Counted from the stretch's first letter, positions 2,328-47,546 are shown. The stretch: DNA of 64,000 nt from Polyangiaceae bacterium (GCA_044222475.1 JBGANF010000008.1:34688-98687), one strand, 5' to 3'. Notes: generated from the sequence alone by a model not told the origin. Program-made: numbers and translations.

Positions 2328-4472
<2,145 letters not shown>

Positions 4473-45391: not shown

Positions 45392-46387
45392 TCATCCTCG
45401 CATGGATCGGCGGCCCGTGCGGCGCCTGTGTCGGGCCAGCGCGGCGCGGACGAGCTGGCGGGTGAAGCCCACGTGACCCGCAGGATCGTTCGCGAGGCAC
45501 AGGTCCGCGCTCCCGTAGTCCTTGGGGAGGTAGTACACGCCGCAGTTGGGGTTGATCTCCAGCATGTACGGAACGCCGTCGCGATCGACCCGAAGATCGC
45601 ACCGCCCGAAGCTCGCGCCGTGGAGCGCGACGAAGAACCTCGCAGCAGCGTCGCGCAGGCGCGCGTCGAGGGCGGGATCGGCGACCGGCGCACCCATCAT
45701 CTTCCCGTAGTCCACCCACTTCATCTTGGCGTGCTTGAACGTCTCGCCTTCGGGGAAGACGTATTGGATGGGCGTGTAGGTCGTCGGGTGCGCCGGGTCG
45801 TCGGGGTTCTCGGCCACGAGGACGGTGCACTCCGTCCCTTCGATGAACTCCTCGATCAGCGCGGCGCCGTGCTTGCCGATGATCTTCTTCGCCTGAGCGC
45901 GAAGACCGGCGGCGGTCGTCACGCGCGATCGCTTCGTGAGGTCGACGCTGGAGTAGCTCGAGTAGTGCTTCACGAAGAGCGGAAAGCGCAGCGTCGCCGC
46001 GGCTCGCTCGACGTCCTTGGCGTTGCGCGCGAGCACGAACGCCGGAGTGGCGATGCCCTGTGACTTGCACGCGCGCTTCATCGTCTTGCGCGAAGGCTCG
46101 TAGAAGATCGACGTCGCGCCGGTGAACGGGACGCCGGCGCGCTCGAGCGTCTTCACGACCTCGATGCCGGGGACGGTCTTCTGGTCGGCCGCTCCGTCGC
46201 ACAGGTTGAAGTAGAGGTCGAAGCCTTCGGCGATTCGCCTCTTCACCTGCTTCACCGACGTCGGTCGCTTCAGGTACTCGACCTCCCACGTGGCCTCTGG
46301 GTAGAAGGGCCTCGGGTCACAGGGCCAGTCGTCCTTGGGGAACGGGTCGGCGAGGAGATCCTGATTCGTCAGGAGACAGATGCGCAT
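45392..46387 (-). CDS. ATP-grasp domain enzyme (D-Ala-D-Ala-ligase-like fold)
   Basis: Start MRICLLTNQDL (ATG at 46387). Motifs FPLFVKHYSSYSSVD, EEFIEGTECTV and the C-terminal GRCDLRVDRDGVPYMLEINPNCG are typical of ATP-grasp ligases. Confidence 0.7.
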   Translation of the reverse strand: MRICLLTNQDLLADPFPKDDWPCDPRPFYPEATWEVEYLKRPTSVKQVKRRIAEGFDLYFNLCDGAADQKTVPGIEVVKTLERAGVPFTGATSIFYEPSRKTMKRACKSQGIATPAFVLARNAKDVERAAATLRFPLFVKHYSSYSSVDLTKRSRVTTAAGLRAQAKKIIGKHGAALIEEFIEGTECTVLVAENPDDPAHPTTYTPIQYVFPEGETFKHAKMKWVDYGKMMGAPVADPALDARLRDAAARFFVALHGASFGRCDLRVDRDGVPYMLEINPNCGVYYLPKDYGSADLCLANDPAGHVGFTRQLVRAALARHRRRTGRRSMRG

Positions 46388-46410
46388 GGGCACGCGGGAG
46401 CACTGTACCA

Positions 46411-46670
46411 CTAGCAGGCTGCGGAAAAACGCCCAGGCACGTAGCGTGCCCTCCTGCCAAGACCGCGAACCTGATGCTCGGGAGCGGGAGCGGGAAGGGA
46501 TCTGTACCAAACTGGGACACTTGTGACGAAGTGGCCACTTTCATAGCGATTCACGATGTCCTCGGCCGTCGAGCATCTTCCCGCTCCCGCTCCCGAGCGG
46601 CGACCTACCCAACCGGTTGGAGGGCACGCAAACCTGCAACTACGCTTTTTCCGCAGCCTGCCAGGCGCGC
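46411..46670. repeat. large imperfect palindrome (three inverted-repeat blocks) in intergenic region
   Basis: Block1 gcaggctgcggaaaaa (about 46416) pairs with tttttccgcagcctgc (about 46649). Block2 gcgtgccctcc (about 46444) pairs with ggagggcacgc (about 46621). Block3 ctcgggagcgggagcgggaag (about 46477) pairs with cttcccgctcccgctcccgag (about 46577). The centre contains the palindrome gtggccac. Verified by manual reverse-complement comparison. Confidence 0.8.
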
Positions 46671-46706
46671 GTTGACCGTCCCGGTGGATGAACGTACGGT
46701 CGAGAC

Positions 46707-47546
46707 ATGCGGTCGCTCGTGGCCTCAGTACTCTGCGCTGCGGTCTGTCTCGGCCACGTCGCACGCGCCGACGACACCGAGCGCGTCGACACGCGAGACG
46801 GCAGCAGCTATCGGGGCGAGCTCGTCGAACGGGTCGCTGGCGACCACGTCACGCTGAAGCTCGCGACAGGTGAGTTGAAGCGCATCGAGTGGGCGGACAT
46901 CGTCGCGCCGGTCGCGCCACCGCCCCCGCCTCCGCCGACCGCGAAGGCGCCGCGCCCGAAGTCGGGCATCACCGTCGACTTGGTCGCCAACGACGAGCGC
47001 GCGCGGCTCGAGAGATACACTGGGACTGGCACGGTCGACGTCGACCACGTGACGACGACGGGCATCACGCTTTACACCACGCAGCGAGACATCGATGTCT
47101 ACTCCGACGTTTGCGGTGTTCCGTGCACCGTCAGAGTCGATCCGGCCGCGCGATATCGGATCGGCGGCGAAGGTCTCATTCCGACGGATGGTTTCTCGCT
47201 GAGGAGTGGACAGGACAATCGAATCGAGGCGGTGTTGGCGACGAAGGCCAAGCGGACGACCGGTAAGGTTCTCACGTACCTCGGAATCCCGATCACCGTT
47301 CTCGGTGCGCTCTTCCTCACCCTCGGAGCGATCAGCTCGGATCAGGCCCCCTGCGATGGTTGCGTGCGGATGAAATCGACGTTCTTGCTCTGGGGCGGCA
47401 TCGTCGCCGGCGTCGGAGTGCCCGTGCTCACGATCGGAATCGTTCTGTGGGCGACGGCCACGTCGTCCGCGTCGATTGATGGCGAGAAGGTGTCCATCAA
47501 ACTACCCGGCGGCCTCGCGCTCTCACCAGGGGGGTTGTCGTTTTGA
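46707..47546 (+). CDS. secreted/membrane hypothetical protein
   Basis: Signal MRSLVASVLCAAVCLGHVARA. A poly-Pro stretch PPPPPPP and two C-terminal TM helices. Confidence 0.5.
   Translation: MRSLVASVLCAAVCLGHVARADDTERVDTRDGSSYRGELVERVAGDHVTLKLATGELKRIEWADIVAPVAPPPPPPPTAKAPRPKSGITVDLVANDERARLERYTGTGTVDVDHVTTTGITLYTTQRDIDVYSDVCGVPCTVRVDPAARYRIGGEGLIPTDGFSLRSGQDNRIEAVLATKAKRTTGKVLTYLGIPITVLGALFLTLGAISSDQAPCDGCVRMKSTFLLWGGIVAGVGVPVLTIGIVLWATATSSASIDGEKVSIKLPGGLALSPGGLSF

Follow-up and report, generated by a model that had tools for sequence, protein, structure and literature searches.

The intergenic region and its inverted repeats

The 64-kb stretch of DNA analysed here (64,000 nt, hereafter called the window) contains two divergent genes, one for an ATP-grasp protein and the other for a protein of 279 amino acids, separated by a palindromic element that leaves 23 nt of native DNA upstream of the former gene and 42 nt upstream of the latter. 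Both gene calls are those of the original prediction, and the same genes are called on public contigs. The features of the region, under the designations argued for below, are as follows.

45392–46387, minus strand: ATP-grasp/D-Ala-D-Ala-ligase-like gene, 331 aa (Pfam PF07478 at 4.8e-16)
46411–46414: left target-site duplication CTAG, so designated because CTAG is found on both sides of related IS copies
46415–46660: probable MITE proper, 246 bp, without transposase and without passenger gene
46415–46429, plus strand: left terminal inverted repeat CAGGCTGCGGAAAAA, the outer block of the original prediction
46444–46454, plus strand: left middle block GCGTGCCCTCC
46476–46497, plus strand: left inner block GCTC(GGGAGC)3GGGAAG
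46498–46576: 79-nt centre, which holds GTGGCCAC
46577–46598, minus strand: right inner block, reverse complement of the left inner block
46619–46629, minus strand: right middle block, GGAGGGCACGC on the plus strand
46646–46660, minus strand: right terminal inverted repeat, TTTTTCCGCAGCCTG on the plus strand
46661–46664: right target-site duplication, CCAG in the window and CTAG in the allele on contig L005
46707–47546, plus strand: gene for a 279-aa protein, no family match

The copy in the window consists of two arms of about 84 nt around the 79-nt centre, and its G+C content is about 62%. Across positions 46411–46664, three pairs of inverted repeats follow one another in mirrored order:

Outer arms, 46411–46429 and 46646–46664: 19 nt with one mismatch, 16 nt of them perfect
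Middle arms, 46444–46454 and 46619–46629: 11 of 11 nt matching
Inner arms, 46476–46497 and 46577–46598: 22 of 22 nt matching, (GGGAGC)3 included

These are the three blocks, given as 16, 11 and 21 nt and now measured at 19, 11 and 22 nt, for which reverse-complement partners had been noticed from the sequence, and the triple gggagc motif placed in the longest of them is indeed there. The similar spacing claimed for the two arms is borne out by block-to-block distances of 33 and 32 nt in the left arm, compared with 31 and 35 nt in the right arm. As had been stated, no pairing takes place between the spacers, in which left and right arm are just 38% and 56% identical. The centring on GTGGCCAC proved approximate: this palindrome exists, at 46531–46538, but lies about 3 nt off the geometric centre at 46537.5. 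The inner 22-mer occurs at just two places in the 64-kb window when up to three mismatches are allowed (0.00 expected) and a search of the window with an arm profile found no copy beyond these two arms, in agreement with the earlier scan for this block pair. As a side observation, the left inner block runs on into a G-quadruplex-type run, GGGAGCGGGAGCGGGAAGGG (46480–46499), which fits the G-quadruplex rule with four G3 tracts and loops of 2–3 nt.

Folding of both strands as RNA, a check proposed with the original prediction, gave −144.1 kcal/mol for the plus strand against −101 for shuffled sequences (z = −8.2) and −155.4 against −114 kcal/mol for the minus strand (z = −8.0); none of 200 shuffles folded as stably as the palindrome. 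The structure is far beyond chance. Such a very stable predicted hairpin, with a z of about −8, could point to a structured non-coding RNA or a long hairpin attenuator, one of the readings first put forward, but we consider this very improbable. The stability is equal on the two strands, as it is for a DNA palindrome, the spacers are unpaired, and where copies of the element differ in one arm, the other arm shows no compensating change. As both genes are transcribed away from the element, neither mRNA needs to include the two arms, and upstream of an orthologous ATP-grasp gene the structure is missing. A search of positions 45800–47300 against Rfam, with E values up to 10, returned spurious miRNA and snoRNA hairpins only and no Rfam family; the best matches were eukaryotic miRNA hairpins far below their thresholds, the top one being a plant miRNA hairpin model at 27.4 bits for a gathering threshold of 150. 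The potential to form a long hairpin would be a by-product of the arms being inverted copies rather than a selected RNA structure.

Terminal repeats and target site

The nature of the outer block became clear from comparison with transposase genes. IS ends of the form CAGGCTGCKGAAAAA were found on all the transposase-carrying copies that we examined, be they on myxobacterial metagenome contigs or on a Bradyrhizobium plasmid, and the outer block of the window is identical or nearly identical to the ends of seven such copies (L043, L048, L049, L050, L033, L059 and L066). In L043, L048, L049/L050, L033 and L059, whose transposases share 75–95% mutual identity, the element begins with CTAG followed directly by CAGGCTGCKGAAAAAC and finishes in the complement of this sequence plus CTAG. 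The contigs fetched for three transposase relatives hold units of 1269–1545 bp, which start with CTAG and CAGGCTGCTGAAAAAC and end in the complement and then CTAG.

Because CTAG is itself palindromic, the duplication at the window copy is deduced from relatives, namely L066, and not read directly. The L066 unit, on the Bradyrhizobium plasmid, carries an annotated IS5-family transposase at 56% identity and reads TTAG/CAGGCTGCTGAAAAAG ... CTTTTTCAGCAGCCTG/TTAG, with a core common to the other copies. TTAG is not palindromic and stands there as a direct repeat; the tetranucleotide is thus a 4-bp duplication, and the inverted repeat starts at CAGG. IS5 duplicates YTAR, mostly CTAG (PMC5493358), and this target is what we found: five copies lie between two CTAG and L066 between two TTAG. 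The alleles L005 and L001 have CTAG on either side, and the window has CTAG on the left and CCAG on the right. By comparison of these sequences, the outermost 15 nt of each arm are shown to be the terminal inverted repeat of this IS5 clade and the flanking tetranucleotide its 4-bp target duplication. The original prediction had tied the transposon reading to the longest, inner block, whereas the transposon signature sits in the outer one.

Two small differences between the window and L005 may be recorded here: the right duplication departs from CTAG at position 46662, and the right arm of the window has one extra A at 46630–46632 (GCAAACCTGC versus GCAACCTGC in L005).

Full-length relatives and their passenger gene

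Genome and metagenome collections were scanned for the pattern GGAGGGCACGC-N14-18-TTTTTCCGC, which gave 22 hits. All but one of these were chance matches, some of them within coding sequence (e.g. L023): the genome collection contributed chance hits alone, and ten of the eleven hits in the metagenome collection were by chance, L033 being the only real one. A DNA search of the plasmid collection with a 266-bp query found no match.

L033 holds a 1729-bp element (182–1910) that has the three blocks in both of its arms of about 100 nt, in the same order as in the window. Between the arms lie two genes. The first (313–660) encodes a 116-aa four-helix-bundle protein, which matches TIGR02436 (3e-15) and the Pfam family PF05635, '23S rRNA-intervening sequence protein' (1e-15), and the second (683–1798) a 371-aa transposase with the Pfam domains DUF772 and DDE_Tnp_1. 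The latter scores 266 bits, for a cut-off of 140, with the NCBIfam model NF033581, 'IS5 family transposase', which is also the annotation of its relatives on plasmids. Relatives of this transposase number in the thousands at 70–95% identity, mostly on contigs of 1.2–2 kb; the name of one of them gives a Polyangiaceae bacterium as its source. When the transposase and the four-helix-bundle protein were used as tblastn queries, no match was found in the window.

A second full-length element, of 1721 bp, is present on L059, with a transposase and a passenger protein 84% and 81% identical to those of L033. Its layout keeps the same distances with diverged sequence: the terminal repeat is followed by GCCCGTGCCCGGAGG and then by (GGGAAC)4. 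The four-helix-bundle gene lies just upstream of the transposase gene in L033 and in L059 (157–657 and 695–1642 in the latter), and a partial one is seen on the minus strand of L003 (1–176), so that this passenger is found inside IS5-family elements in at least two complete copies and a partial one. Our literature search found no paper describing the four-helix-bundle family as an IS passenger. Canonical copies of 1.27–1.29 kb, without passenger, have the terminal repeat alone and neither middle nor inner blocks; these two blocks therefore mark a passenger-bearing sub-lineage.

The 79-nt centre has a different distribution. Local alignment on both strands with the interiors of L033, L059, L003, L043, L048 and L049 did not rise above shuffled sequences, nor did comparison with three solitary four-helix-bundle cassettes described below (z at most 2.7 across all comparisons). 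Since the centre is unmatched in the full-length elements, a simple internal deletion of a parent of the L033 type could only be conjectured. A 96-nt segment that spans it (46490–46585) is 94% identical in the copy on L001, and a counterpart on L002 is a third variant, which makes three variants of the centre in all.

Polymorphism at the locus and a second site

Looking up the exact flanking proteins in public assemblies yielded 20 contigs, ten per flanking gene, and 18 of the 20 terminate inside a copy of the element. Every contig with the 279-aa gene begins within the element, at window positions 46448 to 46631. Among the ten ATP-grasp contigs, L005 is the one that crosses the element into the same neighbour, at 99.5% identity; L002, L006 and L007 stop inside it, and L001 crosses it and goes on to a beta-lactamase-like gene absent from the window. 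The other five (L003, L004, L008, L009 and L010) have a different arm beside an identical ATP-grasp gene and then a gene on the opposite strand; in L003, L004 and L008 it is the passenger-bearing version that adjoins the identical ATP-grasp gene. One locus, in other words, displays strain-level polymorphism between the 246-bp element and a longer one whose four-helix-bundle gene diverges from the ATP-grasp gene. Contig breaks and variants of this kind are the typical behaviour of a repeated, polymorphic sequence. That most assemblies break at the element could also raise the suspicion of an assembly artefact, i.e. a palindromic mis-join, to which we give practically no credence: L005, from an independent sample, spans the element and both flanks at 99.5% identity, and L001, L002, L006, L011 and L014 agree over the large parts of it that each of them covers.

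Further comparisons bear on mobility. L049 and L050 carry an identical 1269-bp IS in unrelated flanks, which indicates that the unit moves. As to the short form, the copy on L001 combines its 94% identical centre with a different distal arm and abuts the TAG stop of the beta-lactamase-like gene. On L054 (815–2540), where this gene is 86% identical in DNA, the site reads CACTAG/GGTG, the element is missing, and the next gene follows directly. The two contigs thus behave as an occupied and an unoccupied CTAG. The other flank of L001 being the ATP-grasp gene, the contig either has arisen by genuine recombination or was joined across two copies during assembly; either way it contains a second short copy, which is known from this contig alone. 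The stop codon of the gene in question, a serine hydrolase (L001 1–1717), lies within the target-site CTAG, and the closest named relatives of its product are in Polyangiaceae and Kofleriaceae MAGs.

An orthologue of the ATP-grasp gene with 92% amino-acid identity, in GCA_044224495.1 (L053), a MAG that was the one related genome our search returned, has an upstream region of 88 nt without any arm. Homology to the window ends there at the ATP-grasp start codon and both neighbours differ, so that L053 is not a true empty site. Among the alleles recovered from public assemblies, no empty allele of the exact window site was found; it is predicted to read ...CACTGTACCACTAGGCGCGCGTTGACC...

One could imagine that the window holds a one-off decayed remnant, that is, a full-length IS that lost its interior in situ and never moved as a short element. 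The longer passenger-bearing element at practically the same place in L003, L004 and L008 speaks for this. But the short form recurs on a different flank in L001, with its 94% identical centre, and a third variant of the centre exists in L002; moreover, the centre is unrelated to the IS interior. The L003 arm next to the ATP-grasp gene also differs from the left arm of the window in both spacers, and so do the 21–23 nt between element and start codon. The window copy is therefore not a simple deletion of the L003 allele, and we regard the remnant hypothesis as improbable.

Our preferred reading, which we hold with high confidence, is that the region contains a miniature inverted-repeat element (MITE), a 246-bp non-autonomous relative of the IS5 family (IS5 group) inserted at a CTAG between two divergent genes. 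Its terminal repeats match those of an IS, its 246 bp are devoid of a transposase, it is flanked by a target duplication of the family type, and it is known from a second site (L001 compared with L054) and with three variants of the centre, the arm being absent from the orthologous L053 region. The original prediction had leaned towards this explanation, which has since gained from the IS5 ends, the L033 element, the CTAG flanks and the multi-site polymorphism. Such a MITE would be immobile by itself and would depend for its mobilisation in trans on a full-length copy, present in the same cell, that supplies the transposase. This enzyme would bind the terminal repeats, excise or copy the element and insert it at YTAR sites, where it would make cuts staggered by 4 bp. 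As for the subterminal blocks, which are separated by about three helical turns, either the transposase or an accessory protein may bind them, or they may be inherited cassette stems.

Conservation of the blocks and the neighbouring genes

Mean pairwise identities within the arms are as follows.

Middle block: 100% (six arm types)
Terminal repeat: 92% (six arms)
Hexamer block: 89% (six arms)
Spacer 1: 75% (six arms)
Spacer 2: 58% (six arms)

The arms of L033, L001 and L003 contain the middle block, and L059 has a diverged form of it; the number of hexamers differs among copies, from three to five. That the blocks have stayed 89–100% identical while spacers drifted to 38–58%, with a spacing of about 32 nt retained, suggests that constraint acts on the middle and inner blocks as subterminal sequences specific to the subfamily. 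Most probably, judging from these sequences, they would be protein-binding sites in the transposition complex, the alternative being that they are inherited stems of four-helix-bundle cassettes.

Conservation of the blocks relative to the spacers would also be expected of a cis-regulatory device of transposon origin, kept because it supplies outward promoters or operators to both genes. With just 23 and 42 nt of native DNA left upstream, the transcription signals of the two genes lie in or beyond the element, which must, we infer, influence the transcription of both; activation of adjacent operons is known for E. coli IS5 (PMC5493358). One version of this hypothesis invokes mirrored sigma-54-type promoters (GGCACG-N4-CTGC) with the hexamers as activator sites, and the consensus arm, read outward, is indeed GGGCACGCAACCTGC, with the canonical GG-N10-GC spacing. 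However, the motif TGGCACG-N4-TTGCW, with up to two mismatches, occurs 11 times in the window for 7.0 ± 2.9 expected, which is the chance rate, and the arms of the window are themselves imperfect, the right one having an extra spacer base and the left one three mismatches; in L033, TGC is replaced by TGG in one arm. The sigma-54 promoter claim was dropped because of this chance frequency and these imperfections. A sigma-70 scan showed no promoter-like site, and the left arm carries a terminator-like hairpin and T-run towards the ATP-grasp gene. Finally, unrelated loci contain elements with a transposase that have these same blocks at their ends, bracketing the transposase gene, an observation that also goes against the operators for a local regulator once proposed for this palindrome. 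Retention of the element as a regulatory device is thus quite improbable in our view.

The terminator-like hairpin (46435–46451, minus strand) consists of GGCACG-CTA-CGTGCC followed by GGGCGTTTTT, and the T-run extends to about 46425. It is made up of the middle block and the private spacer of the left arm; other arm types lack the hairpin.

Solitary four-helix-bundle cassettes

G-rich repeats like the inner block precede the four-helix-bundle genes not only of L033 and L059 but also of L060, L064 and L065. In the latter three the gene stands by itself in intergenic DNA (2926–3396, 1189–1957 and 1419–1918, respectively), with no transposase and no IS5 ends. G-rich hexamer-type repeats are located upstream and complementary C-rich repeats right after the stop codon, forming stems of 29 nt at 97%, 36 nt at 86% and 79 nt at 77% (L060, L064 and L065). 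A PF05635 ORF is bracketed by complementary stems on all five contigs, L033, L059, L060, L064 and L065; the window copy has the hexamer stems, and the PF05635 ORF is absent by tblastn. A similar leader, GAGCAACT or CGCAACTC, precedes the start codon in L060, L064, L065 and L033; L059 has GGGCAACT. From the resemblance of these stems to the inner block, the longest block of the original prediction would be a four-helix-bundle cassette stem; the outer block is the transposon end.

A few observations on these cassettes can be added. Four or five G3 tracts are found in the hexamer blocks of L033, L059 and L065, always on the sense strand of the four-helix-bundle gene and on its 5′ side. In L064, a unit of about 50 nt has about five copies upstream, and two inverted copies of it lie downstream. 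Of the 1737 homologues of the four-helix-bundle protein that we found, nearly all are on contigs of 0.5–2 kb, as repeats are.

This resemblance could be taken further. The middle and inner blocks might belong to a separate, undescribed selfish cassette, and the MITE of the window would then be a hybrid that requires both the transposase and the four-helix-bundle protein. The cassette would consist of a four-helix-bundle gene (IVS-protein/Avd-like) in G- and C-rich hexamer stems with G-quadruplex potential; it would live alone in myxobacterial intergenic DNA (L060, L064, L065) and also fused with IS5 (L033, L059). The MITE would have kept the recognition or processing sites of the cassette, and the protein would serve, for example, in end recognition, RNA processing or the regulation of transposition. 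We find this unlikely.

Comparison with known elements

As an IS5-family MITE, the element is ordinary in kind: it is one further MITE family, in an under-studied and probably Polyangiaceae-like lineage. MITEs that combine IS5-family terminal repeats with internal tandem repeats are documented, and IS5-derived ones include BrickBuilt, MITE239, MITEPgRS/MITE464 and MITE700 of Porphyromonas gingivalis and ATR, related to ISNme1, of Neisseria (PMC4596501). Like these, the window element is short, non-coding and intergenic, has IS5-family ends and an interior unrelated to the transposase gene, and includes short tandem repeats, more of them in some copies than in others. It differs from them in its unrelated sequence, in being G+C-rich (about 62%) where they are A+T-rich, and in its arms of about 84 nt with three conserved blocks at a spacing of about 32 nt, compared with a terminal repeat of 12–22 nt. 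The host differs as well, since it appears to be a Polyangiaceae-like myxobacterium; this assignment is based on the closest named relatives of the transposase and of the beta-lactamase-like protein on L001.

With E. coli IS5, the parents of the element share a transposase of the DUF772 plus DDE_Tnp_1 type that matches NF033581, insertion at YTAR (CTAG or TTAG) with a 4-bp duplication, and a canonical length of about 1.2–1.3 kb. E. coli IS5, however, ends in GGAAGGTGCGAA, whereas the terminal repeat is CAGGCTGCKGAAAAA here. Unlike E. coli IS5, moreover, the sub-lineage of L033, L059 and L003 possesses structured arms of about 100 nt and a passenger upstream of the transposase gene, and the window copy has no transposase at all.

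The third point of comparison is the intervening sequence (IVS) of 23S rRNA, in which flanking complementary sequences form a stem that is cut by RNase III. The 23S rRNA IVS of Coxiella burnetii has been described as a selfish element with an ORF of the PF05635 family (PMC4990558). By analogy, the hexamer stems of the parents and of the solitary cassettes (L060, L064, L065), which bracket a four-helix-bundle ORF, may be likened to the stem of an IVS; the window element, in contrast, lies outside rRNA genes, has lost the ORF and has transposon ends and a target duplication.

The element explains why short-read assemblies break at this locus. It also marks a strain-level structural polymorphism directly upstream of two genes, the expression of which is probably altered, and it should serve as a warning to annotators that such a hairpin is not to be called a riboswitch or an operator. 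The '23S rRNA IVS protein' family is a very widespread family of small proteins, and four-helix-bundle genes that, in these genomes, are regularly enclosed by inverted G-rich/C-rich hexamer repeats and ride in an IS5 sub-lineage offer a handle on its function.

A last observation concerns the DNA between the element and the ATP-grasp gene. The 23 nt at 46388–46410 (GGGCACGC GGGAGC A CTGTACCA) are made up almost entirely of 8-mers that recur within the element, and may be the debris of an older nested copy. In the passenger-bearing allele on L003, a different flank of 21 nt, AGTCTCGATGTCCGCGTGCCC (310–330), is found next to a coding sequence that is >99% identical.
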